Below are positions 3,272 to 63,320 of a DNA stretch of 64,000 nt, in pieces. Position 1 is the stretch's first letter. Every line of letters begins with the position of its first letter. Source of the stretch: Takakia lepidozioides (taxonomy: Eukaryota > Plantae > Bryophyta). Made by a program: the position numbers and the translations under genes. The notes beneath the pieces were generated by a model. It was not told the DNA's origin and made no database searches. It worked only from the letters and a program-made list of their open reading frames with translations. The DNA lies in NCBI GenBank assembly GCA_030704615.1, contig CM060731.1, positions 87,110,001 through 87,174,000 on the forward strand, in the 5' to 3' direction.

Positions 3272-4145
3272 GGAAATGCCAACGCATTTCCATCCGAGTC
3301 GCACCTCCCAACATTCCAGAACGAATGTATTAGATTCGGAAATGCGGCACCGCATTTCCGTTCTGATGAAATATCCTGAAACCTCGGAACTGAAAATGCG
3401 GTACCGATTTCCGTCGGAGTCGCACCTTCCGACATTCCAAACGGAAATGCGGCGCCGCATTTCCGTTTTGTATGTGAGGGAGCGGTGGAACGAAATGCGG
3501 CACGCATTTCCGCCAGCGTCAGACGTTAATACTCTACAGAACGGAAATGCGGTACCGCATTTCCATTCTGACTGAAAATGTGCGCAACGGGAACAGAAAT
3601 GCGGCACCGCATTTCCGTCGAGTCGCACCTTCCGACATTCTAGAACGGAAATGCGGCGCCGCATTTCCGTTTTCTATATGGGGCCTGGAGCTGCTACGGA
3701 AATGTGTTGCCGCATTTCCATCCATGTGAGACCTTCAAACTTTCGGACCGGAAATGCGGCACCGCATTTCTGTCCAGGTGAGACCCTATACTTTCCCGAA
3801 CGGAAATGTGGCACGACATTTCCATTCATCAACTAACGTATGTGAAGGGGAACGAAATGCGGTACCGCATTTCCGTTCACATTGAAAATCATGAACCACG
3901 GGAACTGAAATGTTGTGCCTCATCCCGTCCGAATCGCACCTTTCGACATTCCAGAACGAAATGCGGCGCCGCATTTCCCTTTTGAATCTCATACATGGAG
4001 CTGTGGGACGAAATGCGGCACCGTATTTCCGTTCAACAACTAAGGTATGTGAAGGTGGAACGGAAATGCGGTGCCGCATTTTCTTCCAACAAGTACGGAT
4101 GTGTAGCTTCGTGATGGTACTTAACGGATGCGCCGCCGCATTCGC
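3272..4145. repeat. Phased array of the family A 22-bp palindrome GGAAATGCGG(C/T)(A/G)CCGCATTTCC
   Basis: 15 copies starting at 3338, 3392, 3443, 3491, 3543, 3595, 3647, 3698, 3750, 3802, 3853, 3906, 3957, 4009 and 4062, plus degenerate flanking copies. Spacers are about 30 bp and mostly different. Confidence 0.95.
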
Positions 4146-4760
4146 ATTTTCGCTCCAACTCATCAGACGCTGGGATGGAAATGCCTTGAAATGTGAACAC
4201 GTGGAGCAACGAATTGCTGCACACATGTCGGCACTCTATCTGACTGAAGGGGCATGAGGCGGCGCGGCTGACCGTTGGATAATGATGTTTGTTTTTCGGA
4301 CGGCAGGCGTACCCTGAACGATTCGAATTTCGTAATGACGCAAACTCCACGAGGAGACACTTTCGTCCAACCTTTCGAACCAAGTGGTGCATCACCGCCG
4401 TTTCATCTACTTTTGTCGTGTCTCCTCAGTCACCCCTCTCGCGCCCTTTCCATCTGCACTCTTTTGCCCCTTTTCCCTCTCTTGTTCTTCTTATGCTCGA
4501 ACCTGAGAGGGGGGAGTTCGTGCACCAGACAGGAGACCTCGTCGCAAGCTCCGGAAATTATACTTCGGACGTAGGCCAATGCCAAAGGGGAGGAAGCAGA
4601 TGCGTCTACAGAGGAGATTGCCATCTCCGAGCAGCAGGCCACTCAGGCAACCCAGCCACCAGTGAGAGCTCCAATGCGATCAGGCTGCGCGCAGCTGATC
4701 ATAGCACCGAACCCCCCATTTTGCTTCTGTAATTCTTAGACTGAATGCTAGGAGACTTGA

Positions 4761-7700
4761 ATGCAGAACATGTTTGCATGCCTAACAGGAAAGGTGGACG
4801 TGCTGGAGGGATCGCAGGAATCCGAAGAGCCGCAGGAAGAGTCCGAGGAGCTAGCTGCAGCACGTACACCCACCCGATCCCCGAGCGCGGGTATTCCTGC
4901 CGGGCCTAGCCCTGTGCGATTCAAAGACGCGTCTTCGAAGGGCAAGTTCAAAGCCCCAGAGATCGACTCGCGTTCTTCGGTCATGGAGAATCGCCAGCAG
5001 GGGTCGGGCCCTTCTCCAGCAAAGTCGAAGAAGAAGCAGCCCGTCCCTCTACTGGCTTCTGAACCGGCTCAGGCCGATTCACCCCCCCCAACGCGAATGA
5101 AGCAGCAGGGTAGAAGACAGATTCAATTGCAGCAGACACCTTCACCTGCAAGGATGAGGAAGCAGAAGGCAATCAGGGCGACGGGCGAACAATCTCCCGC
5201 AAAACCGCTTCCACGAGCTGAAGCTCAGTTCCTGGAGGATTTCCCGCCTGCAGATGTTGGGGCCGACTCTGCTGCAGCGAAGGCAATGGGATCGACCGTT
5301 GATCTCGATTTGGTACCGGAGGAGGGTGCTGCCGCTCAACGTTCGCAGCAAGACCTCACCACCGATGAGCAAGCAGGCCCGGAGGAGGCCTCTGCAATGG
5401 CAGAATTGCCCGCAGACAGGCCCCAGAGTGCAGCTCCAGTTGAGGATGCTCCAGCTGCTCAGCCACTACCGGCACCTACAGACATGTCTCCGGAGGATTT
5501 CAAAAGTGCAGCGGATAAAATGTTGGAGGAGACACACAGTAGCATTGGCAGAGTTTCTGGGCAGCAGGGTATTCCAGCGGACTCTTCGAATCCCACTCTG
5601 TCGCATGGTCTCCCTTCCCATCGTCAGGCAGGCCCTTCCCGGAGATGTGGATAAGCTCAAGTTCGCATTTCGAGAAGGGTACCGTCTGGGATCGGCAGCG
5701 TTTTACGTTTCCATTGAGAATGAGGACGGCGAAACTCGTGGACCCACTGCCGATGAATTGTCAACGTGGGATACCCACTGGCACACTCGCAACCACGAAT
5801 TCGAGGCGACGCTGAAGGGTGATCCAGACTTCGGCCATATGTCGGGTAAAATGTTCTTTGTGTGGGACGGGAATCACCGACTTCTCGCCTGGTGGGAGTA
5901 CATCAAGCAGAACCATGCCAAGCACATTGGCTGGCATTACATGGTGGAGTGTGTCATCCTCAAGGTGAAGGCGGCAGACTCCTCCCTGCTCAAGAATGCC
6001 ATGGCGGACCTCAACTCGTAAGATACTCATACCCTCCTAGCACGTTCGAAATGCGGTGCCGCATTTCGGTTTCCATTCTGGTTTGTTTCCGTGCTTCCGT
6101 GTACTGAACTGGAGAGTGTGCCTTGCAGGGTCACTGAGAATGCGTACGTGCATACCCACATGGCACATATGCTGTACAGGGTGAGGAAAACTGGTCTCAC
6201 TGATCCGCAGATGTTTGCGGAAATGCTGGAGCCCGAGCTCATTCAGAAAGCCGTTGCAAAAACAGACCGGACATGGTATCGTCTCACTATGGATGGAATG
6301 GTGGAGGTGATATACGAAGTAAGTCGTCCCAATTTCCCTCTGCTCATCCTTCCCCAATTTTCAGTAATGTTTCCACATGAATCGAATGTAACGCTTCTGC
6401 ATGTTTTTGTTGGCAGTCAAACATCAAGCTGGATTTGGCCCATGCCAAACGCTTCTTCATGGAAAGTGAGGGGCAGGTCAAAACGTTGCAGTCATTGACT
6501 GAGCACTTGAAGGAAGCCGGTGTCAAGTCCAGAACCAAATACGTCAAAGCTTGTGAAGCTGGTGGCAATTGCAGATCCGGCACTTGGAAAGGACTTCATC
6601 CCCGAGATTGCAAAACACTATTCTCGGGCCATGCAGCCGACCATGCAATTGGAGAAACTGCATCACCTCTCAACGGCATGTGTGGAGGCGAAAGAGAAGG
6701 TGAGGTTTCAATGCACTGAAGTTCCTTCCTAGCAATAGCCACTCTCTTCCAGCTCCTGACATTGGATCGGAAATGGCAGACACGGTGGCTGTCGATCTGG
6801 AATGCATCCGAGAGCATAAGGACAATGTGGTCTTTTCCACTCGAAGTTTCCGACCCTGCAGTGGATGTGTGGCTCAACCGTATGACTTGGTGGTTCCAGG
6901 TAATTCAAGGTACTTCCCCAGATTTGCTTTTCTGAAATGAATTCCCTGAACTGCTACGTGACAATGCATTTGGGAATCGCAGGTAATGTCGAATGCGAAG
7001 GAGCAAGTCGTAATGCACACAAATTCGTTCGGCTTGTACGTCAAATGGGATGGAACACAGACATTGGAAGACTACGTGACACGTTTCAGATGTGCGTACA
7101 AGGACAACCTTTTCGCCAGAGAGCTAGACAGCAAGAAGGAGCGTGGAGTTTACACATCAGGAGGGAGCGGGGAAAGCTGCAATGCGAATTGTTTACAGGT
7201 GAAGCACAGCTGCCCTTGTATGCGAAGCCTGGTTACGAGGTTTGTCTCGGAAATGCGGCACCGCATTCGCATTTTATGTTTTCGGTGCACTCTGCGAGTA
7301 GGTTGGTCTCAACTTTTGCTCACGCATGCTGACTGCCTTGCAGGTATATGAAATACGTGCTCCTTCAGACAGGGGCCCCTGGCTCAAGAGCCCCGTTCTT
7401 CATGGCTTGGACCGTGGCGGGCCCAAGCTGTGTCTACACACCCGAGATGCAGAAACAATGGCATCCCGCGCATCTCGTTGGATGCCCGTGGTACCTGGAC
7501 ATGTCTGGCGGTATTGTTGACGAGTCTGAGAAAGATCTGCACGCCTTGGCAGAAGAGAAGAGAAAGGAAAGACGTGTCCCTGCTGGGCCAAAGTCGGCAA
7601 GGAATCTGCTGCTCTGGAAGAATCCAGAAAGGCAGCTGAGATGGCACAAAAGACGGTGGATGCAGCTGTGCAGGCCCAACAGAAGGGGTCGAAGAAGAGG

Positions 7701-9700
7701 ACTCGCCAGCAAGGAGCAGCTGTTGTGACACCCGCCAAAACGAAGAAGCAGAAACAGCCTGTTCAGGAAGAGGGTGAGGAAGAGGACTCCGATGGAGACT
7801 TTGCAACCAGCCCACCCCCCCAAACGCAGGCTGCCTCCCCTGTGCCCACCGTTGTCACGAGAGGCACGAGAACTGGCTCGGCAAAGAAGGCACTCTTCAA
7901 CCCCCCAGGGGGGCACCCTTTCGAGCCGGTGGAAAATGAAGAGGCCGAAAGTGGCTCCCGAAACAGTAGTCCAGTGTGTAAATGAGAGTTTCTTGGCGGC
8001 TTTGGATGGACGGGCAGCCAAGTTGGCATACATGAAGACCATGGAGGGTCTGAAGGGCAGAGCACTGAAGAAGGCGACTGCCGAAGAGCCTTCCGACACC
8101 CCAGGATTTCAGAATATGGTCTCGTTCTTTGAGAGGGTGTGTGCAGACAAGGATTGTAGGAGGGGCGGAAATGCCACGAGTGGTCTTGCGATATGATCAT
8201 CTTGGATATTCCGGACGGGAGCCTGTGGAAGGACTGCAAGCTTTGCCATCTTGGAACAGGTACTCGGAGGACTTTGGAAGAAAGGATTCGGGCTTGCCCG
8301 CATGGTGTTGGACGACAGAGGCTGTGTGGTTGTCCTGGCGAGCAGAGGAAAAAACACTCAGACAGGAATTGCGAAGTGGACCCGCAAGAGCGCCGTCCCG
8401 ATTCTGAAAAAGAAGTGGACGTGCATCAACACACTGGGCCTTCGGTCGGAAGGGAAGAAGGTGATTACGACACTGGCACTCGTCCATTCATTTGCTTGGG
8501 TGTTTTCAAATGCGGTGCCGCATTCGGTTTCTAATCGTTTTCCCCCTGTGTATGCAGACGAAGCAGTTCGATGCATACTGCTTTGTGAAGGAGAACTCCA
8601 CCTTTGCTTTCCGGAAGGAGGGAGGAAAGGTTGACCCGAACTGCGACCCACTCGATTACGACGTTCTGTTCAACAACGTTCCCAAGGAACTTCTCCCTCA
8701 TAGCCTCACTTCAACGGAACCCCTGCGGTACTCACGGACTCGGAGCCCTGCCTTCATTCAGACAATTTGGAGACATGCACAGACGTGGAGGGCACAGTGC
8801 TCGACCTCATCTGTGGGACAGGTATGCAGAATCTTGATCTATGCTGTTCTGCAAATTCTCGTTAGGATGTAGTTCGCAACATCTGAAGCGCCATGTGGTA
8901 ATGTGTGGATGGCATTGTAACGGTGCCTCAATGTGGGCTGGGCGGTTTTCCGACCGGCACCTCTTTGCCTACGAGGAGGATTCATCCGTGTGGGGATCCC
9001 ATCTGGAAGGGCTGCAACGGAATGTTAAGGCTCCGACAGAGCGGAAGTCTCCTCGGATTCGTCGGAGTCCGAGGAAGACACAGTGGACATTGATGCGGAG
9101 GAGAACCCGGAATACGAGTGAGTGCAAACATTGTAAGTTTGCAAGCCTTCTGGGTCATTTATGTCAAACGAATTTCCCGACTGTGGTTCTCATTAGTCTC
9201 GTTGATGATTGTCATGTGCAGGATTGCAGGGTCCGGGTCGAAACATGTAGGGCCTACACTTCCTGCCAGGAAGAATGTCCCGTTCTTTGCGAGGGCCGAC
9301 TTCATGACGAGCCGGTGAGGGACTACTCCCTTCCTAGTTATGCAGCTAAACTCGCAAATACAGCGATTAGAAGAAGTGAGAATCCCAGTAAAGTAGAGCA
9401 GATTTTGGAGAGGGCTAGGGAGGACAGAAGGATAAGGAAAGAGTTGGCAGCAGCTCAGACAGGTAGACGGGTACGAAAGTACATATGTGATTCAGCGGAT
9501 GAGAGCGACGCAGACAGGGAGGAAGACGACCCAACGGAGGTGAGATGGACAGTTCCGCAAGGGAAGATGGGATTTTCGAAAGCCTGGCCAACGAGCAGTC
9601 CGCTGGAGATGAGAAAGGCACTGAGGGGGTGGAGGCGGAGCAGGACAGTCTAGAACAGGATGAGGATTCGGATGATTTTCAGATTATAGAATTTAATGAA
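4761..9700 (+). CDS. Family A accessory gene: low-complexity N-terminus + ParB-like domain + beta-class N6A/N4C methyltransferase-like domain (multi-exon, frameshifted in this assembly)
   Basis: FFVWDGNHRLLAW (~5850-5895), MIILDIPDG (8193), YSRTRSPAFIQT...VLDLICGTG|ASMWAG..DRHLFAYEED (8730-8980). GT-AG introns e.g. 6018-6128, 6319-6416, 7199-7343, 8461-8557. Start and end approximate. Confidence 0.8.
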
Positions 9701-9821
9701 GTCTCTGTAAATGTAAATTCTCTTCCAGAAGTATATAAAGGAAATTCTGCCAGACATTCGTGACCCCTCTCCAGTGTGCATTCCAGCCACACAATCGCTC
9801 AACCACGACTCTCCCAAAATC

Positions 9822-10582
9822 AGAAATGGGGCACCGCATTTCCAAAATTTTGGCAACTCTAAGAACCTCTTTTGGACATGCGACACCCGCATTTCCAAAC
9901 AGGGGAGGGACTAAATTTCCATTTCAATGTTGGCATAGTAAAAAGTAATCGGCCGATTGGAAATGCGGTGCCGCATTTCCAAAATTTCCTTTGTCCACAC
10001 GCCAGTTTTGGCCTCTCCCGCTCATTGCATGGATGCCACCACGCTTACAGAGGTCGAACAAGGAGGTCGAACAAGGGGTCGAGATGGCGGAATTGAAAAT
10101 GCGTTGCCAGCATTTCATATTGGGGATGGTCGTTGTTCTAACTGCAGGCCCATCACCAAAAATTGGCACCGCATTCCATTGTAAAAAAAAAGTCGATGAC
10201 GGACATGGAAATGCGGCGCCGCATTTCCAGAACGGACATCGCAATTTGTCCATTTGCAGACCCTCTCCGGAAATGCGGTAACGCATTCCATCGCGCTGGT
10301 CGGAAATTCACACTTTTCGAAGTGTTGGACGGAAATGCGGCACCGCATTCCCTTGTCCAAAAAGAAGTTTCCATTGCCAAGCTGGAAATGCGTCGCCGCA
10401 TTTGCAATGCCAACCTCGTTGTCTGTCCATTTATAGACCCGTGTTGGTATTTTGTGTACCTGGACGGAAATGATGCACCGCATTTCCTTGTCCCACATGG
10501 AATGCGGTGGCGCATTTCATTGTCCCACATGGAAATGCGGTGGCGCATTCATTGTCCACAGGAAATGCGGTGCCGCATTTCA
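9822..10582. repeat. Distal array of the family A palindrome
   Basis: About 11 copies of GGAAATGCGGNNCCGCATTTC variants, e.g. at 9959, 10207, 10331 and 10561. Confidence 0.9.
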
Positions 10583-10837
10583 ATGTCCGACATGGCGTTA
10601 CTCTTGTATATTCTTGACACATGACTCACATACCGGTTACTCTGCTATATTCATCCGGACAGACACATTGTAGAAATGAGACATCAAATTGTAAACAGTG
10701 GGCCAATTCCGACAGTTATTCAACAGATTGAAACACAATCATACAGAAGTGAGGTACGATGGGTTTATTGATCGGACACGATGTCTCACATTTACCAACT
10801 GCAGACAAACTAAGCCCTTCCTCCTTCTACATGGGCT

Positions 10838-11445
10838 TCACCAAGTCGACGGAACTTCGATACCCCTCAAAACAAGCTCATCACTGCTGCGGCACCTCGA
10901 GGTAAACTGCAATTGGTCGTTCTGCTGCCCTTGCTGGAGCCGACGACAATGTCATGTCCATCAATGATACCACCATCATAGATTGACAAGGTCACTGTGG
11001 GCCTCATGTGCCCGGTGATTCGTCTTTGCAACTCAGCCGAATGTCTCCATACACTGGAAAGCGGAGTGATCTGCACGTATATAGTTTTCCCCGTGCCGTC
11101 CTCCCTGTCCACTGGCAGCAGTTCCAGCGCCAAAGCGAGGCCGTGCGTGATCTGTCCGGCATCCCTTTCCAGCTTGGTATATCGAGGTCAACAATTGTCA
11201 GGACCCACGGACCGCATTGACCCTCGCCCTCACCTCGCTCAAAGCGGTAATAGCCCTCCAGATACTCCATTGCGCGCAAAGACTCTTGCTTGATTCCAGC
11301 AGCGTCTGTGAAAACAAAGAGCCAGACAATGATGTCTCCTGATTCTAGTTTGAACATAGCATATCGTGGCCATGATAAGGGCAGTCGGCTGGATTTCGGC
11401 GGCACGGCATCCTTGAAAAAGAGTAGCGGAGTACGCTCAATGATA
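10838..11445 (-). pseudogene. Family A small cargo gene 1 (unknown domain), frameshifted copy
   Basis: Pieces in ORFs 11004-11405 and 10867-11133 match the intact 204-aa ORF at 25492-26106. Confidence 0.7.
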
Positions 11446-11667
11446 GCAGCTCCCGGATGGAGGAGGAGCAGCGCGGTGGCTGGAAAAAGTTCAAGCTAAC
11501 GCTGCAATTCGTCACAAACACTCCAGGGCACATTTAAATTCCCCCCCTATAGGATCCTGGACCGATGAAGATTGGCTACTTCATGAATGTAGCCGTTTCA
11601 GTTTCCTACCCTGCCATGCAAACTATGGGCACTCACTGCCAGGTGGGCCGATAGCCACTGGACACGA

Positions 11668-11731
11668 CGAAGTCCATCCCCTCTTCGATGTAAATGCGGC
11701 GCCGAATTTCCATCCGGGGGGATGGACTTCG
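11668..11731. promoter_or_regulatory. 64-bp imperfect palindrome between the divergent cargo genes
   Basis: CGAAGTCCATCCCC...GGGGATGGACTTCG arms enclosing AAATGCGGCGCCGAATTT; conserved in copy A2 at ~26328-26391. Regulatory role is inferred. Confidence 0.55.
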
Positions 11732-11794
11732 GTGGCAGATCTCAAACTATAACTTCTTGATGAGAAAGATGTATGGGTTCATCCACCTCCGTCG

Positions 11795-12505
11795 GTGGGT
11801 ACGTGGGACCCAGATGCTCCATTATTGGAGGCCGGACTGCTCTTCCGCTTCGCATCATTTCCAAAATCTAAGGGCTTCGTAGCTGTCTGCAAGGTCATTG
11901 TCATCTGCATCCAAGTCGTCCTCAGGTCCTCCTTTGCAAGGATGCCGTGCTTCCGGAACCGGGACGACTGCCCATTTGGAGGCATCGATTATGCAATGTA
12001 TTCGGCCACATCGGGAGACATTGTTATCTGGTACACATATTACACAGAAGATACTGGTTCGATTGTGGAAACATTGGTGGCTTTTGAGTATATCGTAGGC
12101 CACTATGCCTTTGAGCGGGGTGACGATCTTGGTCTGAGGAGTCCGTGGCTCCTGCGCATCCTCGATTCCGATTTTCCTAGCTACGACGGTCACCCATGCA
12201 GAAGAAGGCGCACTGCTATGTTGTTGCGGTGGAACTGCTGCCACTGGACGTGGGTGGACTCCATCGGAGAGACCTATTCTCCTCAAGGAGTGCGCTCCTC
12301 TTCTCCATTGTATGGGGACATTCGCATTGGTGTGGACGACGAAAACGTGAAGATTTCCATATTCGATGGTGGTATGATTGAAGGGCAGGACATTGTGGTG
12401 AACATCACTAGGGGCGGTACAACGGCTGCAATCGACTTTACATGGAGGAGCCCCATGACTCATGAGCTAGTTCTGAGAGCAGTCGAAGTCCCATTGACAA
12501 CGTGA
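11795..12505 (+). CDS. Family A small cargo gene 2 (unknown domain; paralog of cargo gene 1)
   Basis: Open 236-aa frame (likely ATG at 11942). Shares SGDIxxW, FERG, PW, RTAxLxRWNCCxWT, YGDIR, DGGMIxGxDIVV and ELVLRAxEVP with the opposite-strand ORF. Confidence 0.7.
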   Translation: MGTWDPDAPLLEAGLLFRFASFPKSKGFVAVCKVIVICIQVVLRSSFARMPCFRNRDDCPFGGIDYAMYSATSGDIVIWYTYYTEDTGSIVETLVAFEYIVGHYAFERGDDLGLRSPWLLRILDSDFPSYDGHPCRRRRTAMLLRWNCCHWTWVDSIGETYSPQGVRSSSPLYGDIRIGVDDENVKISIFDGGMIEGQDIVVNITRGGTTAAIDFTWRSPMTHELVLRAVEVPLTT

Positions 12506-12834: not shown

Positions 12835-12961
12835 CGTGGCACCCTAAACCCTATTCCCGCGGACACTCATTTCCGGAAAATAGTGCTGCTCATGTTTTTT
12901 TCCACACTTACGACTCTGCTCATGGCTCATGCCGCTCATGGCTCATGAAATAGCAGCCCCC
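12835..12961. repeat. Family A terminal inverted repeat with subterminal GCTCATG repeats
   Basis: GCTCATGGCTCATGCCGCTCATGGCTCATGAAATAGCAGCCCCC; near-identical copy at ~47645-47773. Confidence 0.85.
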
Positions 12962-14366
12962 GTCTCACCATGCCACCGAGCTCCAGTGTCATCCTGCTGG
13001 CTCGTGCATGGATTGCGACTCAACCCATCTGCATTGCGATTGACCAAACCCGGTCGATGCACCACCTGGAAGTCATACTCTTGAAGGATGAGTGCCCACC
13101 GTGCAAGCTTCCCCATAAGCTTGTCTGACTCCATCAACCACTTGAGTGGTTGGTGATCCGTGACAAGGGTGAAGAGATTGCCATATAGATAGCACCTGAA
13201 GTGTGCCACGGCCCACACTGCAGCTAAGCATTCTCCCTCATATGAGCTATAGTTAGACTCTGCAGCATTGTTCGAGCGGCTAGCATAAGCCACTACGAAC
13301 TCTCTTCCCTCATCATCCACCTGTGTGAGCACCGCTCCAAGCCCCAACATGCTCCAATCTGTATGCAGCTGAAAGGACGCCCCCTGATAGGTCGTCTCAA
13401 GATGGGCGCCGAGGTCAACCTCGCCTTGAGCTCTTGAAAAGCTTGTTCTTGCTCATCTTCCCACTGCCACTCCTGGTCCACCTTGGTCAGCTTGGTTAGA
13501 GCCTTTGCAATGGCACTGAATCCCTTAACAAACCGTCTGTAATAGTTTGCTAACCCCATGAAAGCTCGAACTCGGCTCACATCCGTGGGGCGTGGAACCT
13601 GTGCAATGGACTCTACCTTAGTCTGCTGTACCCCCAATCCTCCAGGATATATCATGTGACCCAGATACTCAATCTGGTTGTGGAAAAACTTGCACTTGCC
13701 CGGATGTAACTTCAATCCGTGCGTCGTTAAGCGCTCAAATACCCCCTGAAGGTGTCTCTCATGCTCCTCCACCGTAGCACTAAAGATGATGATGTCATCT
13801 ATGTAGCACCGAGCAAACTCCACCCCTGCTAGAATCCTGTCCATGACTCTTTGAAACTCAGCGGGAGCGTTTTTAAGCCCAAATGGTAAGAACCGCCACT
13901 GGTATAGGCAATCCTTCCCGTGCTCATTGATCCCCCAGAATGCCGTCTTTTGCTTATCCGCCTCCTTGATCGGCAACTGGTGATATCCGGATCGTAAATC
14001 CAACGTGCTAAAGACCTTGGAATGCCCAATGGCATCAAAGATCTCCTCTGGTGTTGGCATGGCATACCTATCGGACTTGGTCTGACGATTTACAGGCCGG
14101 TAATCACCGCACATACGTCTCTCCGTCCAATTGCCATAGACATCCTTCTTAGCTGGCATCACTGTGGCTGAAGCATACTCTCCACCAGAGAGCTCCACCA
14201 AACCTGCCTCCCAGAGATCTTGAGTCCTCATCTGAATCAAAGACCTCTCCATGTCACTGTATCTATAGGGTCTCCGAAAGATTGGCGTGTCAGTGGCCAA
14301 CTCAATACGGATCTCTTGACCCTTCAGTGCTCCCAAGTCCTTCAAACTGAAGGCAAAGCAATTCAT
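12962..14366 (-). CDS. Ty3/gypsy reverse transcriptase + RNase H (frameshift ~13370)
   Basis: [31 protein letters not shown]; RNase H VVAYASR, YEGECLA, TDHQPL, NADGLSR. Confidence 0.93.
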
Positions 14367-14504
14367 GTAAGCCCTCAGGAACCGCCGTATACATCGTCTC
14401 TCTCCTCCGGTGACAATGGGTCTAATGTCAGGCTCCCAATTGTCCTCCGTAACTGCAACCTTAAGTCCAGTGGGCTTAGGGGTAGAGGACGCGTCCCGTG
14501 GTTG

Positions 14505-16205
14505 CTATGCTGCAACCTCTTGAGCAGTACTTCCTTCCTGCTCAGTCAATGACAAGGCCTCATCCTGCCCCATCATCTCATCATTGAGAACCTCCTCATC
14601 CCGAGAAGAATCCCCAACCTCATCCATCACAGCTGCCTTGGCTGCCATCTCCCTTTGGACCTCGAGCACCTCCCACGTGTGCCATGGATGTCTACACCCC
14701 GTGGTCCTCACCGGCTCGCCCCCACTCGCTGCCTGTACCGTCTCGGTAGGCAGAGAGTCCATGAAGGGGAGTGCACTCCGCACTCTACGTTGCTCAGCCA
14801 TAGCCAAGCTGATAATCCAAGTCAAGCAATTGAGATCCATTGCTTGCCCCAACACTTGACGCCGTGATGTCTCAGAAAGAGAAGGCACCCCCGTGGTCCC
14901 AGTGGAAAACCCCGTAGCCCGCTCTCGCTCGTCGGCATTAGGCTCCACTAACTGCTGCAACTGGCTATCCCACAAGAGGCCAGGTCCACCATCCCGAAAA
15001 GCATGTGATCCTGGGAAGCTGAGCAGTGTAGGTAATGCTGCTCGTGGTTGATCCACCCTGTTGACCACTGCCAAAGGTGAACGGTCATCGTGTCTCACAC
15101 GTTGAGACTGCCTCCCTGTGTCCAAAATGTCATCCACGGTGAGGTGTGCTGGCCGCGGCACCCCATCATATGCACGCTTGAGCAGTGCGTGTGGCATCAA
15201 GTTAGTCCACCAAAGCCGTGGACGATGAGCCCGTGATCCCACTGCAGCTGCATCCAGCAGCACTGCTGACCCAAGCCACGACCGGACTTGATGCACACTG
15301 GCCATCACCCTGGCCCGAGAATCACCCATCAGTGGCACATTCTCCAAGATGTATGCTGGAGATACAGCTTGATGAAGCTGCAAGTGGCGCAAAACCCGCA
15401 CCATCTCCCAAAACAGACCCGTCCTCGAGTCTCGCAATCCATTGCCATGCCCGGCTGATGAATGCCCTTGGCAGGGCCAACCTGCCACTATCAGATCAAT
15501 GGAGCCAACCTGCTCCAAATCTTGCGCCCCCAACAAGGAAATGTCTGCTGGCAAGGCTTGTTGGTATCCACGAACTACAGACACAGGCAACAAGTCAGGG
15601 TATTGCTGTACCAACTGAGCAACATGGCGCAGTGAGACGCGTCGTGCAGTCTCATCCCTCTCCACATACAGGTAACGTCGAACTCGTACACTTGCCTGTA
15701 GCACAGCAGCCAATCCGGTGCTGATCCCGCCAAACAAGTCCAGAAGGCAAATGCCTTCATCCGGATACTGCCACACAATAGGTGTGGTATCCAATGGTGA
15801 CAACTGAGGTGGTCCTGGTGCAATACCCGCACTCTCCTCCTCTCCTGACGGAACAAAAGCCTCTACCCAGGCTTGTTGCACCCGTCGATCAGCAACCTGC
15901 TGCAAATCCTTGCTCGTACCCCACAATGGAGTGTGAGTAACCATGGCAGGCAACTCCGCCATACCATGCATGTCATCCTGCTCTGCTGGAGGTGGCACAT
16001 CCTCTGCATGGGCATTGCCTTCTAGCAACTCTCCAGGCCAACTAACTGCAGCTGTAAAGGCGGCTAGTGTTGGCATCTTGCCCCGCTGGGCAGCCGCTAT
16101 ACCCCCAATGAATGTCATAGGGAGCTGTGCACGGCGACCATCGCCTGACTGCCATCCAGGCCTGTAGGATGTTGACTCCTCCCAAAAGTCCAGGGTGAAG
16201 CCCAT
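14505..16205 (-). CDS. DNMT3-like C5 cytosine methyltransferase domain inside pol
   Basis: Motif I LDLFGGISTG, IV GWPCQGHS, VI YILENV, VIII AHRPRLWWTN, IX ERERATGF and X RRQVLGQAM, in canonical order. Confidence 0.92.
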   Translation of the reverse strand: MGFTLDFWEESTSYRPGWQSGDGRRAQLPMTFIGGIAAAQRGKMPTLAAFTAAVSWPGELLEGNAHAEDVPPPAEQDDMHGMAELPAMVTHTPLWGTSKDLQQVADRRVQQAWVEAFVPSGEEESAGIAPGPPQLSPLDTTPIVWQYPDEGICLLDLFGGISTGLAAVLQASVRVRRYLYVERDETARRVSLRHVAQLVQQYPDLLPVSVVRGYQQALPADISLLGAQDLEQVGSIDLIVAGWPCQGHSSAGHGNGLRDSRTGLFWEMVRVLRHLQLHQAVSPAYILENVPLMGDSRARVMASVHQVRSWLGSAVLLDAAAVGSRAHRPRLWWTNLMPHALLKRAYDGVPRPAHLTVDDILDTGRQSQRVRHDDRSPLAVVNRVDQPRAALPTLLSFPGSHAFRDGGPGLLWDSQLQQLVEPNADERERATGFSTGTTGVPSLSETSRRQVLGQAMDLNCLTWIISLAMAEQRRVRSALPFMDSLPTETVQAASGGEPVRTTGCRHPWHTWEVLEVQREMAAKAAVMDEVGDSSRDEEVLNDEMMGQDEALSLTEQEGSTAQEVAA

Positions 16206-46870: not shown

Positions 46871-47037
46871 ACACATACGAGCCATGCCCACTTCCCATGC
46901 TGGTTTCTAGGTTATCGTGTGAAGACTTTGCATTTAGGACAAACACATACATTTCGTTCACGGAACCAGGGCAATTGCACATGCCATTCATTGTAAGCAT
47001 CTATCTGTGAATTGAAATAAAGTGTGTCAATCATTCT

Positions 47038-50790: not shown

Positions 50791-50885
50791 GTAGGCAAGA
50801 GTGGTTGTACTCCTCCAGATGCAGCCCTAACCACTTACATATCACTATGGCAGTAATAATTCCAATACACGTCTGGATGACCCAG

Positions 50886-51075
50886 TGAGTGGTTTTAGCA
50901 CACAACCTAACCACTACATCAATACTGGTACAACCACTCAGTCCGTGGTTTTAGCACACAAACTAACCATTACTGCAATACAACCTAACCACTACTTCAA
51001 TACTGTTATGCCATTCAGAAAGTGGTTTTAGCACACAACCTAACCACTACTGCAATACTGGTAGAACCACTCAAT
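50886..51075. repeat. Short tandem repeats GTGGTTTTAGCACACAACCTAACCACTAC, CACTA-subterminal-like
   Basis: Three near copies; the AGTGGTT/AACCACT motif resembles 28480-28745. Confidence 0.5.
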
Positions 51076-51845: not shown

Positions 51846-54800
51846 ATGAAAAGAGTAGACGAAGAGGGAAACGAGGAAAGCTTGGCGATGCAAGAGTGGG
51901 ATTTTGAAGTGGAACAACAGCCCCCCATACATCCGAGAACAGGTGAGGAGGAGACTGCATCTGAGGGAGAGACGGACGCCGAAGATATTGATGCTGGCCT
52001 CATGAAGAAGCAAACAGTGGAAAAAAGGATGGGGGAGATGCTCCAAAACATGCTCAACATAGACAACAGTCCGAAGCGCAAACGGTCTCCGGCGATTGGT
52101 GAGACTTTGAGAGCAGCACAAAGAAAGGTACAAGTGTTGTTCACTGCTACATATTGATTTTGCTTCATGTTATGCTGGCCCAGTTATGCAATCTGAGGTA
52201 AGTGCAAGAAGAAACCATTATGGGGTGCCGCACAATGTTGGTGCTGGTTCGGTCATGTTGTTTCCGGTTTGCAGGTTCAATCCACCCCTAATTGTTTGAG
52301 CCCCCCGTTGTGCTTGATTTTTGATGAGAAAATCGGCAACCATCGGCCACTCTGGCAGGTTGTAAACACCCCTTATTGGAAGCTCAGACAGTGTGCGGCA
52401 ACGCACACTGTTAGAGCCCACATTTCTGCTTGTTTATTGTTGTGAAAATCGACCACCTTGGGCCCACTCTGGCAGGTTGTAAACACCCCTTATTGGAAGC
52501 TCAAACTGTGTGCAGCAACGCACACTGTTTGAGCCCCCCTTTGTGCTTGTTTTTTGATGTGAAAATCGGCCACCTTCGGCCACTCTGGCAGGTTGTAAAC
52601 ACCCCTAATTGGAAACTCAAACAGTGTGCGACAACGCACACTGTTTCAGCCCCCCTTTGTGCTTGTTTTTTGATGTGAAAATCGGCCACCTTCGGCCACT
52701 CTGGCAGGTTGTAAACACAATTGGAAGCTCAAACAGAATGCGGTAAAACACACTGTTTGAGCCCCCCGTTGTGCTTGTTTTTTTATGTGAAAATCGGCTA
52801 CCATGGGGCACTCTGGCAGGTTGTAAACACCCCTAATTGGAAGCTCAAACAGTGTGCGGCAACGCACACTGTTTCAGCCCCCCTTTGTGCTTGTTTTTTG
52901 ATGTGAAAATCGGCCACCGTGGGGATTTCGGGCAGGTTGTAAACACACCTAATTGGAAGCTCAAACAGTGTGCGTCAACGCTCACTGTTTTAGCCCTCAT
53001 TTGTGCTTGATTTTTTATGAGAAAATGGCCACCTTCAGCCACTCTGGCAGGTTGTAAACACCCCTTATTGGAAGCTCAAACAGTGTGCGGCAACGCACAC
53101 TATTTGAGCCCCCCTTTGTGCTTGTTTTTTGATGTGAAAATCGGCCACCATGGGGCACTCTGGCAGGTTGTAAACACCCCTAATTGGAAGCTCAAACAGT
53201 GTGCGGCAACGCACACTGTTTGAGCCCCCCGTTGTGCTTGTTTTATGATGTGAAAATCGGCCAATCTCCTTGCTCCCAAGTTTTTTGGCTAGTTTGCAGT
53301 GCATGCAAAAGTGTATATAAGGGAGATGAACCTTAAATGGATAGTCTCTGGCAGGTTGTAAACACACCTAATTGGAAGCTCAAGCAGTGTGCGTCAACGC
53401 ACACTGTTTGAGCCCCCCTTTGTGCTTGTTTTTTGATGTGGAAAAAGGCCTATCAAGGCCAGTATGCCTTGTTCAAATCACCCATTATTGGAAGCTGAAA
53501 CAGTGTGCGTCAACGCACACTGTTTTTGGCCCCGTCTCTGCTTGTTTTTTGATGTGAAATTGGCCCACACAGGGGCAGTATGCCATGCTCAAAATACTCA
53601 TAGTTGGAAGCACAAACCGTGTGCGGCAACGCACACTGTTTGTGGCCCCTTCACTGCCTGTTTTTTTATTTGAAAATTGGCCACTCAGGGCCAATATGCC
53701 ATGTTCAAATCACCCCTATTTGAGAGCTCAAACAGTGTGCGGCAACGCACAATATTTTTGGCCTCCTCTCTGCCTGTTTGTTTTATGTGGAAATGTGCCT
53801 CATAGGGCCAAATTGTCATGTTCAAATCAACCCTATTTGGAAGCTCAAGCAGTGTGCGGCAATGCACACTGTCTGTGCCCCACTCTCTGCCTGTTTTTTG
53901 ATTTGATAATCGGCCACTCAGGGCCAGTGTTCCATGTTCAAATCACCCATTATTGGAAGCTCAAACAGTGTGCGGAAACGCACACTGTGTTTGGCCCCCT
54001 CTCTGCTTGTTTTTTGATGTGACATTGGGCCACACAGGGCAAGTAGGCCATGCTCAAAACACCTATAGTTGGAAGCAAAAACAGTGTGCGGCAACGCACA
54101 CTGTTTTTGGCCCCCTCTCTAGTTATTTTCTGATGTGAAATTGGACCACACAGGGCCTGTCTGCCATGCTCAAAACATCATCGTTTCTTGCCTCTCTCTT
54201 ATATCAATTTGAATGAACAACCCTGCAGGAGAAGATGCAAAGGGTGGCGGATGAGAACCCTTCGGGGCAGGAGAAGGAGATCATTGTTGATGTGGACGAT
54301 GAGTTCTATGAAAGCAAAGCTGCTGAGATGCTGGGGGGTCAGAAGGTAAACTCTCAGCTTGTGGTGCAAAGTATGCTTGCCCCGGGTGGGAGGTTGAAGA
54401 TTCCCCTGTGTAGGTTGGTTTCCATGCCGGTCGTTCGTCCACCCCTAATGAAGGACATCCAGAAGCTGGAAGCCGAGTTTGTTCATGGGTATTTGGATGG
54501 ATCCGTAGTCTTTTACGTTTCTACTAGGGATTCCAGAGGCAATGAGCTCCTTGTGGATGAGTCAATCGTGGACTCTTGGGATCCCATTTAGAGACAGGTG
54601 AACGAATCCTTCAAACTTCTTCTCTCCAGGAAACCTTTGACCCAGGCATTCTTAGGGCAGATGTTTCACGTATGGGATGGCAACCACCGGTTGCTTGCAT
54701 GGATGGCTGTCATTGGGAGGCTGCACTCACAGGAGGAAGAGTGGCATTACTGTGTTCGATCAATGGTGCTGGATTGTGACGGGAACATGATGGGTCTTTT

Positions 54801-57765
54801 GACGGCAATGAATGATATGAACAGGTTGGTTTCTCACTCCACATGTTCCAGTTGTGGTTCCGTGGTTCTTTGGTTCCAGTCCTCTATTGACGGTTCTTGA
54901 ATTTCATTATGACTTTCACACATCATTCTGCAGATGGACGGAGACATCGCATGTCAAAACGAGTCTGGTTCACACACTGTACAAGATACAAAGGATCGGG
55001 CAGATGCCCTTGACCAACTTCAAGACCATCCTTTCAACAGAGACGTACAAGAAGTGCGAAAGCTCCAAGACATCAGAAACATGGTACTCGTTGACCCGTG
55101 AGGCTTTCATGGAGTATATGTACGCGGTGAGATACATCTTCCATCATCTGGCCTTTCGATATTCCTGCTTCCAGATGTTTGTTTTTGTGTGTTTCCCTTG
55201 CCCTTGGGTTGATGCAACTCTCGTGCATTCCCTTGCAGCAAGACATTGCAGATGCAGGACAACGTGACAAACTAGAATACTACAGCTCTACCCCTGAGGA
55301 GAGAAGGACAACAAAGGGGGTTGAGAGTCACATCAAGCAAGAGATGACCGCCACAAGAAGAACTATTATGAGTGCTTTTGTTAAGTAGTTGAGAATTGCC
55401 GACCCATCATTCGGACCGCAGTTTCCTCAAGAGGTGAAAAACCATTACAACAAGCCAGGCAAGCCGGAGATGGCCCAGGAGAAGTTACACAGGTTGTCTA
55501 CCGCCGTTGTGTCTTCAGAACAGAAGGTGAAGTGGCTACAGATATGGAACTCCGATCCCACTGTTAGGGATACCCACATGTTCCCCAGGCCGGAGAAAGA
55601 GAAGAAGACCCAGCGTGTCATTCCTGTCAGTGACAATATGATGGACACATGGCTTCACAAGGCCACTTACTAGAGCTAGGTATGATGTCCTTTGATGTGT
55701 CACTGTCATTTCTCTTTTCTGTCGTTCTCTTTCCATGTTACATTGGCTGTGATTGATTTCTAGCTCATTCTTGCATTCGAATTGATTTACAGTTGGAGGA
55801 AAGAGCCCAGTTTGTTCTACATACGCAGCTGGCTGACTATGGCATCACCATGACAGCACCGAAGGTCTCCTTCCAAGCATACATGCGGAAATGGAGAGCC
55901 ATAGTGTGGCAATCTTGTTTCTTCAGGGAGTTCAACAAAGAGGGTGGCATCAGTCGAACAAATGAGCTTGACCAGCAAGAGAAAGGAGAGGAAGCCTGGA
56001 AACGATGCCTTTACAGGTGCGAAATAGACTATGCTTCTTTGATTTGCAAAGACACACTCTCCTCCATCCAACCTGTTTTGTGCTGGCTCATATGAGTGTG
56101 CGGTGCCGCACACACATTTGCTCTATCATTGTGTAGTAACACCAACGTGCACACCCTGGGCCCTTCAGGCTATTTTGTGTGTGGTGGTTGCAGTGTGCGG
56201 TGTCGCATACTCTTTTTAGGGGGTCTTCGTGATGTGGTAGAAAAGCTGGGAGACAATAGTTGCATTGCATAATGAGGCTGTCTCTGTGCCTGCAGGTACA
56301 TAAAGTATGTTCTCATGGCAGAGAACTGCTTGGACAAACATCCTGATTTCGTGGACCTGTGGCTAGTTCCTGCTGACAACCAGACCATGTTTACTACGGG
56401 GATCTTGCAGGACTGGGGCCTAGACCATCTTTCTGCCTGTGGTTGGTATTTGGATTGCCCTGTTTCTGAGACCCCAGCGCAGGAGGTGTCTTTGAGGAGA
56501 GAGTATGAGCATGTGGCAGCTACCGCCGCAGCTGCCGACCTCGAGATTCATGATAGAAATTTGAGGACACTTGCAGAGAAGGAGCCTCCCGCTCAGGATA
56601 CCCCGGGTAAAGGTAGAAAGGCGAAGGGAAAGGATGTTGCTGTTGGTGTGGGGAAAGGAAGGGGTAGGGGGAAGGGAGCGCAATGGCAGGTTGTTGGGCA
56701 GGGAAGTGTTGTAGAAACTGGCCCTGCGGCGGATGTCCAGCCGACCAAAGAGACTCCACCGCATGGTAGGGGATCCGGGAGAAAGAACAAGGGGGTGGTT
56801 GATCCTACGGACCCGTACCATGCGGTGGAGCATCCCACGAGGGTCATTCGCCCTACCAGGTTGGAGATGGCCAACGTCGGGTTCCTTGCCATGATGGAGT
56901 CCAGGAAATCTGATTACAAGGGCGATCCATCACTAGTGTGGGAGAGGATTGTGGAGTTCCTCAGCACGGTGCGTGTTGTCTTTTGCTTCTTGTGTTTTGT
57001 GGGCATGGCTCGTTTCAAGCGTCTTGAGCATTTCATTGCATGCTTGTTTGCAGGCTAAAATGACCAGATCCTGGGTTGACGGGAAGGAGAAGCCATATGC
57101 AGCCGAACTCATCATCTTAGACATCCCTGATGGGTTGCCAGTCCCGGATGTCCCTCTAGCTAGTGCTTGTCCAGGTTAGAATGCTTTTGATGAGCGCTAC
57201 TGGCAGTGGGTTTTCTCCTTTTGCAATTTCTTTCTATCCGATGCAGGTGTTTTGGTGCTCATCCAGTCCATCGACCTTCGCTATCGCCGTGCACTTGCCA
57301 GCTATTTGAAAGCCTTTGGTATGAGGGTCGTGAAGACATGGAATTGTGTGAACAACATGTACCTGACGAAGGGGGATCATCCGTGAGAGATGGTAAATCT
57401 GCCTTCTTATTCCTCTTCTTGGTGGTTCTTGGATGGAGTTCCATAAGTCGCTCAACTGAATATGTAGGGGCCTGGTTTTCAAGCTTCTTAGTTCCTTGTG
57501 GATGTCCTGTTCGCAGACTCGTCTGTTTGAAGCTGTTTGTCTCGTCCGGGTTCATCCACCTACGACTCCAGCCGTCATTAGGGAGTTCGCCATCACTCAT
57601 GGGGGCAAGTTCATAGACAAGAGGACAGATCCTCCCACGGATGACATGCACCACAACTACGTGGACAACAACGTGTGCTTGCGAAGGGGGAATGGGGTTC
57701 CTTGGAGAGGGGCCAGGGAGAGGAGCCCGGCTTTCATTCAAACGATTGTGGAGTGCTGCACCTAC
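51846..57765 (+). pseudogene. Family C accessory gene (ParB-like + MTase-like), with stops, truncated before motif I
   Basis: RLKIPLCRLVSMPVVRP, FHVWDGNHRLLAW (54598-54900), LIILDIPDG (~57110), RGARERSPAFIQTIVECCT. Intron positions match A/B; first exon tentative. Confidence 0.82.
52300..54175. repeat. ~116-bp tandem array carrying the family C palindrome AAACAGTGTGCG-N4-CGCACACTGTTT
   Basis: About 15 units; unit starts at 52351, 52468, 52584, 52700, 52812, 52928, 53043 and 53159. Ends just before the acceptor at 54228. Confidence 0.95.
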
Positions 57766-57904
57766 ACACACCTGCTCACGACGTAGCCACATTCCAATGC
57801 AGGGGCTTAATATGTTGATAACGTCTAAATGGATGCAATGGATAGAAAGGATGGATACAATGGATGTAACACATCAAGTCTGCATTCCCTGGAAAAGGCT
57901 GATC

Positions 57905-58036
57905 AACCCGCAGTAATAGGTGACACCCGCGGAAATAGGCCCTGTATGCATGCTGACGTGGCGTGAGCCTATGCTGGGCTCACGGTTTCCTGGGCTCACA
58001 GGCTCAGGCCTCCGGGCTCACGGAATAGCACCCCCC
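57905..58036. repeat. Family C right TIR with GCTCAC subterminal repeats
   Basis: ...GGGCTCACGGAATAGCACCCCCC, same layout as the A/B termini. Confidence 0.8.
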
Positions 58037-60839: not shown

Positions 60840-61145
60840 ATGCCGAACCAGTTCGGACCACTTTCGAACCTGTGGCACTGTTCGGCACCTATGTTTTCTA
60901 AGAAAAAGTTTTTTTTTTAATTTTTAATTTTTAAAAAGTGTATGAAATGGTGTTCGGTGCCGAACCTTCAATATTTGAGGGGTTATATGCAATATGAATT
61001 TAGTAAAAATCTCATTTGGAATCCAAAATGGAAATATTATATAAACTGAACCTATCCCGAACCTGGAAGTTGTTCGGCAAACAAGTCCGGGCGGGTCGGT
61101 GACGTTCGGCAAAACCTGCTCACTGCTCATGGATTTTCAGCCCCC
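60840..61145. mobile_element. Terminal fragment of a further related MULE (family E)
   Basis: Ends GCTCATGGATTTTCAGCCCCC, the same layout as the A/B TIR. Contains GTTCGGTGCCGAAC (60952-60965) and several GTTCGGCA half-sites. Confidence 0.6.
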
Positions 61146-61411
61146 TGTAAATGCAATGACAGGGTAGAGTAGTGTTCCCACACCATGTTCTATGCCCCAA
61201 GACCAAGTTCTATGTCTGGGGCAGGGATATCATTACCATAACAGGCTGTAATCAGAGCACGCGCCAGGTGCTCACTAGCACGTGAACTCCCAAAGAAGGC
61301 ACAAGTTTCTTTGCCCCTTGGATGGGAGTCACCCGATTTCGGCACTGCGTAAATACACGATTAATCCAATTTACCTCTCCCACTTTTGTAAGCTAGCATG
61401 CATTCTACACA

Positions 61412-63320
61412 GGGGAATGTTTGCGCGTGAGCCTGTGAGCGCGTGAGCCCAGCCAGGCTCACGCCACATCAGCAAGGTTTCCCATGTGCAGGACCTAATT
61501 CCGCGGATGCCACCTATTTCCGCGGAATTGTAGGCGACTACCACGCCCCAAATTTGTCAGGTTGCATTGACGCAAGGTTGATTGGAAACCGCAGTGCATT
61601 TTGCTTAGGCTTCGAATTCTGCTATAACGTGTCTTCTTTTCCAGACCCAAATCAACCTTGTGTCAACGCAAGGTTGATTTCGGTTTGCTTTCATCTGTTT
61701 CCTTCAGATCTACTTGTAAGCAATTTTCAACCTTGCGTCAACACAAGGTTGTTTCATGTACACAATATAACGTTTCTTGGTTTGAAAATTTGCTTTTGAA
61801 TGATACTTTTCCAGACTCATATCAACCTTGCGTTAACGCAAGGTTGATTGACGTTTCATTTCATCTGCACTGTTCAACCTTTCGTTGTTGACGCAAGGTT
61901 GATTCTTTATCAGAATAGACCAATTCTGTGTTTTCATTATTGGTTTGGGCTGCCAGTTTTGAAGGCTCAATCAACCTTGCGTCAACGCAAGGTTGGTTGA
62001 GGTTTTCCCTTCTGTGTACCTACTGTGTCAGTGCTGAATTTTAACCTTGAAGAAATTGGTATATTGGGTGTGATTGTCAGGTACATCTACCATGTCCTCA
62101 TTCCGGGGAAGTATCTCAGCGATGATCCGGTTTTCATTTACATTTGGGCGGACCCCTCTAAGGATAAGACAATGTACACGGCTGGGATTGCGAAGGACTG
62201 GAGCAGGGTGCACTTCAGAGACTGCGGGTGGTACCTCGACTTACCAAAACAAGACACACCATTCGAGGAGGTGGTCATGAGGAACATCAATGACAACCCA
62301 GCAGCACTGGCACCACTCAGTGACAAAGACATTCAAGAGAGAATTATTCAGTCCCCCGCCGCAAAGGAGCCGGAAAAAAGTAGCACTCCCAAGCGGAAGG
62401 GGAAGGGTGCAGGAGATGGGAAGGGGAAGGGGAAGACTGTAGCTGGGCAAGAACAGGCTGTGCAGGACACCACGGAACGTCAACCTTCTCCGACTCGGAA
62501 GGACAAGAGAACTCCGAAAACTAAAGAACAGCCTTACAAGGCCAGAGAGCACCCTTCTCGGGTTTTGGGTCAATATCAAAGTGAGGTGGTTAACGAGAGC
62601 TTCTTGGCAATGATGGAATCCAGAAAATCCACATTCAAAGGAGAGAAATTGAAGACTTGGGATGTCCTGGTTTCTTTCCTCACTAAGGTGCCCACACAAA
62701 ACTCTACTTTGAATGTTTTTTATTTCCTTATGGATTTTGATTTCTTGCTAACTGGTCTATTGTTTTGGTTTTGTGGAACAGGTCACCAAAAGGCCCGAGT
62801 GGGTGAATGGAAGCCAACAAGCGTACGCAACTGACCTGGTGGTACTGGACATTCCGGATGGTTTGTCTGTGCCGGATGTGCTCCCTTCCAATGCAACACC
62901 AACATGGAACAAGTCAGATGCCCTTTTTTGGCAGTGGGTTTTTTCTTTCAGCAACAAATTCTTGTCTGATGCAAGTGCTCTTCTTCTGTTACAGGCAAAA
63001 GACATGCTGGCAGCGGGTGAGTTTAGGGTCATCAACTAGCTCTTATGCTAGTTTCATTCGGTTGTGTTTGTGCATGTTGAAAAAACTGAATTTTTCGGGT
63101 GTGTATGCAGACTCGGGTATTCGAGGCTTTGTGCTTGGTGAGGTTGCGTAAGGACACCCTCCCTCCTAGTGTTGCGGAGTTCCAATTGAGGGACCTTGCA
63201 GCACACATCGACCCCACCTGTGAGCCTGTGGAGGACGATGTCCTGTTCAACTACGTGGACTCAGGGCGGACCTTGAAAATGACGAATGGTGTCCCGTGGA
63301 GAGGTGCTCGGGAGAAATCT
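61412..63320 (+). mobile_element. Family D deletion derivative: TIR + palindrome array + 3' exons of accessory gene
   Basis: Terminus GGGGAAT-GTTT-GCG-CGTGAGCC similar to C. Exons from 62081 encode CGWYLDLP, VNESFLAMMESRKS, LVVLDIPDG, PTWN and VPWRGAREKS; homology then stops. Confidence 0.78.
61555..62000. repeat. Family D palindrome cluster ATCAACCTTGCG-N4-CGCAAGGTTGAT
   Basis: Six copies; perfect 28-bp palindrome at 61821-61848. Confidence 0.88.

Follow-up and report, generated by a model that had tools for sequence, protein, structure and literature searches.

Palindromes of one CG-N4-CG geometry accompany a ParB-like accessory gene in Mutator-type transposons of Takakia lepidozioides

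Which protein, if any, reads the repeated palindromes in one stretch of the Takakia lepidozioides genome? The stretch, hereafter the window, spans 64,000 nucleotides (assembly GCA_030704615.1, contig CM060731.1, positions 87,110,001 to 87,174,000). This eukaryotic DNA is rich in introns and repeats, and has Gypsy and LINE (long interspersed nuclear element) pieces. Elements A, B, C and D, which are nested, all belong to a single kind of DNA transposon, of Mutator type. A and B carry a transposase gene and a divergent accessory gene; in C and D the accessory gene alone is visible. The palindromes contain two CG pairs separated by four nucleotides (CG-N4-CG), between arms that differ from element to element. 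The original prediction, made from the sequence, was that they are operator-like sites for a dimeric protein encoded by the elements. Our analysis indicates that the reader is likely the ParB-like accessory protein and not the transposase.

We scanned the window for CG pairs separated by 0–12 nucleotides and flanked by at least five of seven complementary arm pairs (strict sites). There were 73 with a spacer of four, compared with 1–6 for each other length. With any of the other 15 dinucleotides in place of CG, the same spacer yielded 1–8 sites. An unbiased scan recovered 50 even-centred palindromes with 11–13 of 13 pairs matched, against 0–1 in three Markov controls; no comparable excess of odd-centred palindromes was found in this comparison. 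The predicted core pattern lies where it was reported, and the sites are far above chance. Allowing up to four mismatches to the patterns first noted, A, B, C and D contain 44, 28, 16 and 4 sites of their own, respectively.

The shared geometry holds for these four families but not for a fifth, E, once grouped with them. E is a lone palindrome (60949–60968; site at 60953) in a TTCGG/CCGAA-rich stretch, with no array and no adjacent accessory gene, and we judge it to be outside the system. The surrounding region (60840–61120) has five TTCGG and three CCGAA words and is likely the end of an unrelated small element. The proposed core, T(G/T)CG paired with CG(C/A)A, was drawn too narrowly. Cores of CTCG and GTCG occur in other genomes, and what stands is CG-N4-CG. 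The spacer is fixed in length and its letters are constrained: 35 of the 44 A sites have GCAC, GTGC or GCGC, and 25 of the 28 B sites have GCGC. Symmetry is kept in 35 of 44 A sites; among those of B, only 11 of 28 read TTCG..CGAA and 17 are asymmetric. The described repeat periods of 52, 85, 95 and 116 bp were confirmed, with further periods of 53, 75, 96, 149 and 33 bp. Flanks of different arrays score 10.4–14.4, compared with 11.9 ± 1.9 after shuffling, save that the 53- and 85-bp units of B are related (24.4). Repeat units are thus unrelated across families, yet the elements that carry them are homologous.

Sites occur between the divergent genes, in accessory-gene introns and 3′ of genes. 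The palindrome-bearing intron of the accessory gene is equivalent in A, B and C, and the D sites precede the equivalent exon. By comparison, the A and B transposase genes have 0–1 strict sites, and there are none in retroelement stretches or around a third transposase of the same kind (scanned across 42580–47040). Hence, in the window the motifs are not as frequent outside the elements as within them.

We then asked which gene the sites accompany, using metagenome contigs. The best 80 of 440 transposase loci were taken; 51 are non-redundant and 19 of the 80 have accessory-gene matches. Because these loci are AT-rich and their sites decayed, CG, TG and CA were all accepted. Counting CG only, there is no spacer-four peak (5 sites, compared with 1–6), which appears only with CG-to-TG/CA decay allowed; the 80 loci have almost no T(G/T)CG cores in strict, unmutated form. 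Ten loci with a divergent accessory gene were compared with 23 that lack a match and have about 2 kb or more upstream. Redundant copies, short-upstream loci and three loci with non-divergent accessory exons were excluded. Upstream of the accessory-gene loci there are 37 spacer-four sites in 45.5 kb, against 2–9 for other spacers. Upstream of the transposase-only loci there are 10 in 105.5 kb, against 6–14. A per-locus site finder was run on 24 loci. Arrays of at least five sites were present in seven of ten accessory-gene loci but in one of 11 transposase-only loci (one-sided Fisher p ~0.007, or 0.012 with the near-identical L009 and L019 merged). The three loci set aside have six, five and three sites beside accessory exons. 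At L026, L061 and L064 the sites adjoin accessory exons and not the transposase. Since the arrays follow the accessory gene, its ParB-like product is the likely reader.

The geometry recurs in other genomes with new arms, so that symmetry is not lost in additional families. Half-sites, in which CG was restored from decay by inference, include ACCAT(A/G)TG-CG, CCATATG-CG, GCTTCTCT-CG, GCTACTNT-CG, CAACT(C/T)T-CG, ATTGT-CG and TGTTAGT-CG. Across these genomes, CG-N4-CG alone is invariant. The idea of operator-like sites with family-specific arms thus survives in amended form: the sites track a gene for a protein of predicted ParB fold and acquire new arms elsewhere, while the core is broader than proposed and E drops out. 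Transposase-only loci are interspersed through the transposase tree. The ParB tree has low support, and discordance between the trees is therefore not taken as strong evidence. A candidate recognition helix precedes a conserved DPxLG. L011 and L068, whose arms are shared and whose transposases fall in different clades, have similar versions of this helix; this comparison uses few decayed sequences and alignment ranges, with no residue-level mapping. Two further observations concern these loci. A second palindrome with an AGCT spacer alternates with the main site at L009 (2900–3100), L019 (3400–3990) and L075 (6500–8000); it also fits a decayed CG-N4-CG. Loci L001–L006 form a clade of intron-poor, GC-richer (0.39–0.48) transposases near the window elements in the tree, with no accessory match on their short contigs.

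What kind of protein is the accessory product? Its ParB-like exon has 505 relatives at E ≤0.001, 150 of them among the matches listed; named relatives of the protein come from Riccia sorocarpa (a liverwort) and Adiantum (a fern). The window exon matches a PHROG ParB-like family at E 0.011. The arginine of the GxxR motif is retained in 78 of 93 proteins with a W[DE]GN anchor, out of 199 stored. A structural model of the Riccia relative, P0176, is confident over residues ~135–700. It aligns with the N-terminal and DNA-binding parts of ParB, Noc and KorB (Z 7.6–8.9, root-mean-square deviation (rmsd) 3.8–7.7). Over residues 146–516, the top rows of the VIA search are ParB (179 aligned at Z 8.9 and rmsd 6.9; 134 aligned at Z 8.6 and rmsd 3.9), Noc (Z 8.2) and KorB (Z 7.6); PadC was matched too. 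The C-terminal part matches the folds of CcrM, M.BceJIV and M.MboIIA, which are beta-class amino-methyltransferases. In P0158, a near full-length relative, PF01555 is detected at E 5e-5, under the curated cut-off. Its nearest named Atlas clusters (0.82–0.83) are phage N6_N4_Mtase proteins, most with ParB_N, and serve as a lead only. Models therefore predict a ParB N-terminal and helical DNA-binding fold, followed by a beta-class N4/N6 methyltransferase fold. The gene resembles those of known ParB-methyltransferase accessory proteins in having a ParB-like N-terminal part, an N4/N6 (PF01555) domain in the same gene, a transposase opposite and inverted-repeat arrays alongside.

Several searches gave little. 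Pfam detected no ParB or methyltransferase match above cut-off in the window exons, and three alignments searched against the sequences of solved structures gave no match. Among ParB-domain members, three of 58 match DndB and two of 58 DUF1015, weakly. Genome contigs, in a search that reaches close relatives only, yielded no prokaryotic relative of P0005. A homodimer prediction scored 0.00; it was made without an alignment, its fold is uncertain and it weighs neither way.

Methyltransferase catalysis, judged from sequence, is doubtful. The motif of active beta-class N4C/N6A methyltransferases, (D/S/N)PP(Y/F/W), does not occur in the window or in 18 of 19 relatives, and it is the missing DPPY/SPPY aromatic residue that raises the doubt. 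In its place is D-x-P-x-G (DIPDG in the window), with an aromatic fourth residue in one of 19 relatives. Motif I, for S-adenosylmethionine (SAM) binding, follows motif IV (DLTCGTG in B; DFAGGWG-like in eight relatives), and the D, the P and the motif-I glycines are retained from liverwort to fern. The methyltransferase-like exons of the window align to the relatives' motifs; in alignment A4 some window exons are misaligned and the P0176 C-terminus lacks motif I. Descent from Marchantia DN4MT1 was considered and rejected, as that enzyme has a TSPPY motif (bioRxiv 10.1101/2021.02.12.428880); the comparison was of motifs.

We consider it quite probable that the accessory protein binds the palindromes. 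On balance we favour a fuller account, with somewhat less assurance: the protein would bind its own family's palindrome as a ParB-like dimer and help to maintain the activity of the element through the marking or shielding of cytosines. The palindromes are likely parS-like loading sites by which a family would recognise its own copies. The dimer would contact both half-sites; CG-N4-CG would serve as the conserved contact and the arms would make up the family code. The dimer might then clamp and spread with cytidine triphosphate (CTP), in the manner of bacterial ParB. The methyltransferase module would mark or shield cytosines and so counter host silencing in VANC fashion. Tandem duplication would multiply the sites and fix new arm variants through asymmetric intermediates, such variants bridging one code to the next. 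The transposase would read separate, short terminal repeats. A bolder version is tentative and rather unlikely. It is that a domesticated phage-type ParB-methyltransferase acts as a CTP-driven sliding clamp in land-plant transposons. The clamp would load at CG-N4-CG, spread along its own element and write N4-methylcytosine or N6-methyladenine, or shield CG; one recognition helix and the arms would form a re-programmable code.

Several points weigh against this account. The fold scores are middling (Z <9, no Foldseek E <0.001), and the model is of a relative rather than the window protein. The catalytic motif is atypical, as described above. One locus, L048, has an array without an accessory match, while L007, L018 and L045 have the accessory gene with just one or two sites. 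Gene and array may have been deleted together from the transposase-only loci. The sites of any one array are not independent data points. Within the C array, conservation is higher in the palindrome than in the remainder of the unit (0.96, compared with 0.85), yet the palindrome ranks only third among 94 windows.

An alternative that we regard as unlikely accepts binding and changes its purpose. The protein would be a KorB-like repressor, limiting expression of its own element, or a structural loader that helps transposition, and its methyltransferase module a dead SAM- or base-binding relic. Co-occurrence and fold evidence apply equally here. Arrays are indeed densest between the two divergent genes, the aromatic residue of the catalytic motif has been lost and spliced accessory-gene contigs come from two runs that are RNA by guess. 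However, sites are also found in introns and 3′ regions, like the targets of VANC (PMC5735166). Furthermore, the D, P and motif-I glycines have been retained from liverwort to fern, and the invariant bases are methylatable CG pairs.

Could the transposase be the reader instead? The MFDH, FMADN, CGFH and NMAES motifs, which we take to be those of a Mutator core, can be read in it, and it has a DDE core with CxxH and a SWIM domain (E 0.0038, short of the Pfam cut-off). The Cys/His pattern of a further domain is conserved among relatives. In a model of this domain (predicted local distance difference test score of 74), the GCM-DNA structure 1ODH ranks first in both fold searches, weakly (Foldseek E 6.6e-3, probability 0.90; VIA Z 4.9, rmsd 4.8, 129 aligned), with WRKY rows close by. 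Pfam found no GCM match above cut-off in the window transposase. From the model, a GCM-type DNA-binding domain is tentatively predicted. It could read the palindromes, whether these act as subterminal or as internal binding sites, to achieve synapsis or self-activation. The A half-site ATGCGG presumably resembles the GCM box, which counts against our account. Transposases able to activate cognate copies have been reported (bioRxiv 10.64898/2026.08.24.746577). Conversely, sites are not enriched upstream of the 23 transposase-only loci, no strict site surrounds the third transposase and ATGCGG is absent from most other families. The element ends are also lined by a different motif, common to A and B. 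We therefore reject the GCM domain as main reader and consider a role for it in reading the palindromes quite improbable. The sequences suggest that the transposase may read the ends instead, since A and B have terminal inverted repeats (TIRs) and CATGAGC repeats in common but not their palindromes.

That the palindromes are by-products, kept symmetrical by hairpin-templated correction and tandem homogenisation without any reader, fits the many sites in tandem arrays, the 336-bp inverted duplication in B and the modest conservation contrast within the C unit. This reading is very unlikely, however: the 4-bp spacer stays fixed from family to family and genome to genome, unrelated units contain the same site, homologous introns carry single sites and the palindromes depend on the accessory gene.

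Element A extends past the window start. Its transposase gene (1–3148, minus strand), with GCM-like domain and Mutator-type core, is broken and ~70% identical in nucleotides to that of B. Between the divergent genes is an array of ~52-bp units (3270–4140) bearing GGAAA-TGCG-N4-CGCA-TTTCC. The accessory gene (4761–9653, plus strand) has its ParB-like exon at 5569–6018 and methyltransferase-like exons at ~8184–9005, limits being inferred from homology and GT-AG ends; single intronic sites are at 6047, 7249 and ~8506. A 3′ array (9820–10590) and two divergent paralogous open reading frames (ORFs; 11004–12505) follow. The ORFs, of ~200 residues each, belong to no Pfam family, have no matches in the 80 metagenome loci and flank one palindrome, a lone TGCG..CGAA hybrid at 11690. 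The right end (12860–12961, minus strand) has TIR GGGGGCTGCTATTTCATGAGC with short CATGAGC repeats. A second A copy (22522–26912, plus strand) retains the 3′ part of the accessory gene, a site at 23006, an array (24213–25205), a site at 26351 and the ORF pair (25492–26912/47038–47310). Interrupted by a 20-kb insertion, it continues to its right TIR at 47038–47773 (plus strand). Immediately left of this truncated copy are two neighbouring odd-centred palindromes (22405–22465). The insertion (26913–47037) has no evident TIR or duplication at its junctions and contains a terminal-like CGTGAGC stretch (26990–27140) and LINE pieces, along with element B and the third transposase.

Element B is complete (29681–42580), with 21-nt TIRs and the target duplication CCCTGACC on both sides. 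The left end (29673–29760, plus strand) has the duplication at 29673–29680 and a TIR from 29681 whose 21 nt are identical to those of A. The right TIR (42490–42588, minus strand) ends at 42580, with the duplication at 42581–42588. At this one junction pair the duplication is 8 bp exact, or 9 bp with one mismatch. The accessory gene (30240–35521, minus strand) has its ParB-like exon at 34076–34531 and methyltransferase-like exons at 30600–31420. A 95-bp array of asymmetric sites (32278–32793) lies in an intron that is spliced out, in close copies, by joint 32246–32857. Arrays between the divergent genes (36250–37940; 85, 53, 32 and 96 bp) include the 336-bp inverted repeat and bear GGAAA-TTCG-GCGC-CGAA-TTTCC and variants. 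The transposase (38088–41812, plus strand) comprises a GCM-like domain (38748–39347), Mutator-type core and C-terminal SWIM. Asymmetric sites in 75-bp units form a 3′ array (41960–42335). At the centre of the inverted repeat, 32-bp units (36975–37180) carry a second palindrome type, GAATTACCT-N6-AGGTAATTC, in a form other than CG-N4-CG.

In a DNA run, summed contig depth is 17,000–35,000 from 37950 onward and ~20 beyond 42597, stepping from ~18,000 to ~20 at the right end of B. Of 45,134 aligned contig records, 25,304 are at least 99% alike, which is no measure of copy number. The depth drop fixes the end of B and, with the likeness of the records, implies a large, young family. Close copies of the accessory gene of B show GT-AG joints in contigs of two runs (X9 and X11) that are RNA only by guess, no matching run being on record as RNA. 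None of these joints was listed for two other runs compared alongside. Transposase cover in X9 and X11 is scant and carries no weight on expression. Single-base differences at 31419, 31747 and 33280 are common to several runs, which suggests that the frameshifts of the window are assembly errors or private to this copy.

The third transposase (43457–46870, plus strand) is more distant. In C, an array of 15 units of 116 bp (52293–54174; ACAGTG-TGCG-N4-CGCA-CACTGT) lies immediately upstream of a broken accessory gene (54235–57790, plus strand) with intronic sites at ~56094 and ~56190. The right end (57890–58036, minus strand) has a related TIR and CGTGAGC repeats. In D, sites of the form CAACCT-TGCG-N4-CGCA-AGGTTG (61560–62000) immediately precede the exon that follows the palindrome-bearing intron of A, B and C; exons of the 3′ half of the accessory gene occupy 62082–63326 (plus strand). 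Elsewhere in the window, a Gypsy-type long terminal repeat retrotransposon (12962–18715, minus strand) encodes a C5 cytosine methyltransferase (PF00145, E 3e-13, ORF 14505–16205) between gag/protease and reverse transcriptase. Tandem repeats containing ACCACT (28479–28570, 50902–51058; 31, 22 and 77 bp) are probably subterminal motifs of another transposon.

How do these elements relate to known systems? MuDRF elements (PMC3164196) also have a MuDR-branch transposase with a GCM domain, which here is predicted only. They are described from fungi and Naegleria, with a single encoded protein and 9-bp duplications. In contrast, A, B and 10 related loci have a second, divergent gene, and the window duplication is 8 bp exact at one junction. 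In Ectocarpus, Sola1-1_Ec32 encodes, on the strand opposite its transposase, a ParB-like and N4/N6 methyltransferase protein of ~1,100 residues, for which binding and modification of its own element were proposed; that paper cites cases from green and red algae, its reference 50 being PMID 21507349 (PMC12477816). Compared by description, that is a Sola element of a brown alga, with no binding site given in the part accessible. The window instead has Mutator elements of GCM type. These have relatives in land plants, their sites are defined and family-specific, and the catalytic motif is atypical. In Bostrychia, Plavaka PAG3/PAG2 elements have a ParB-like accessory gene with adjacent tandem inverted-repeat arrays, and self-binding and self-modification were proposed (bioRxiv 10.1101/2025.02.11.637652). 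Those are EnSpm/Plavaka elements, from red algae, in which ParB is joined to a 2-oxoglutarate oxygenase and the methylase is a separate SET-domain gene. The text accessible has no spacer geometry or test of reader identity; its supplements may show repeat geometry. Hence, ParB-plus-modifier accessory genes and adjacent inverted-repeat arrays are already described in algal transposons.

VANDAL transposons, of Mutator type, encode VANC, an accessory protein with demonstrated anti-silencing activity that binds family-specific motifs tandem-amplified in introns, intergenic and terminal non-coding DNA (PMC5735166). Family-specific motifs are likewise amplified in non-coding parts of the window elements. 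VANC motifs are 8–9 nt and 'palindrom' is absent from that paper, whereas our sites are palindromes of 20–24 bp and the candidate reader combines predicted ParB and methyltransferase folds. By analogy, a putative anti-silencing role is perhaps like that of VANC, in mode of working and not in membership. The likeness to ParB/parS, Noc, KorB and VirB consists of a predicted fold over the N-terminal and DNA-binding parts and a GxxR motif. Shigella VirB is a ParB-fold, CTP-binding anti-silencer (PMC10653881). Unlike these bacterial proteins, ours is eukaryotic and transposon-borne, has long helical insertions and is joined to a methyltransferase fold; no ParA partner was seen. Further related literature is PMC1702500, PMC4738411 and PMC12973397. 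Our search, which did not cover most subscription journals or Repbase, found no report of a gene of this sort in Mutator elements of land plants, or of a code built on CG-N4-CG. Within the literature searched, three things are new: the GCM-Mutator setting in land plants, a defined geometry for the sites and the array-to-gene test.

Escape of plant transposons from DNA methylation is understood for few systems, VANC foremost. For the algal ParB-modifier genes, escape was proposed without a defined target in the texts accessible; here the target is explicit and family-specific around a fixed CG-N4-CG. In addition, family B is high-copy, close copies of its accessory gene appear spliced, and relatives exist in a liverwort and in ferns. 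The proposed self-marking is therefore directly testable. The protein-site pairs are a possible source of orthogonal parts for epigenome tools. For these transposons and their hosts, the finding raises the question of whether a clamp of ParB type could operate on chromatin in eukaryotes.

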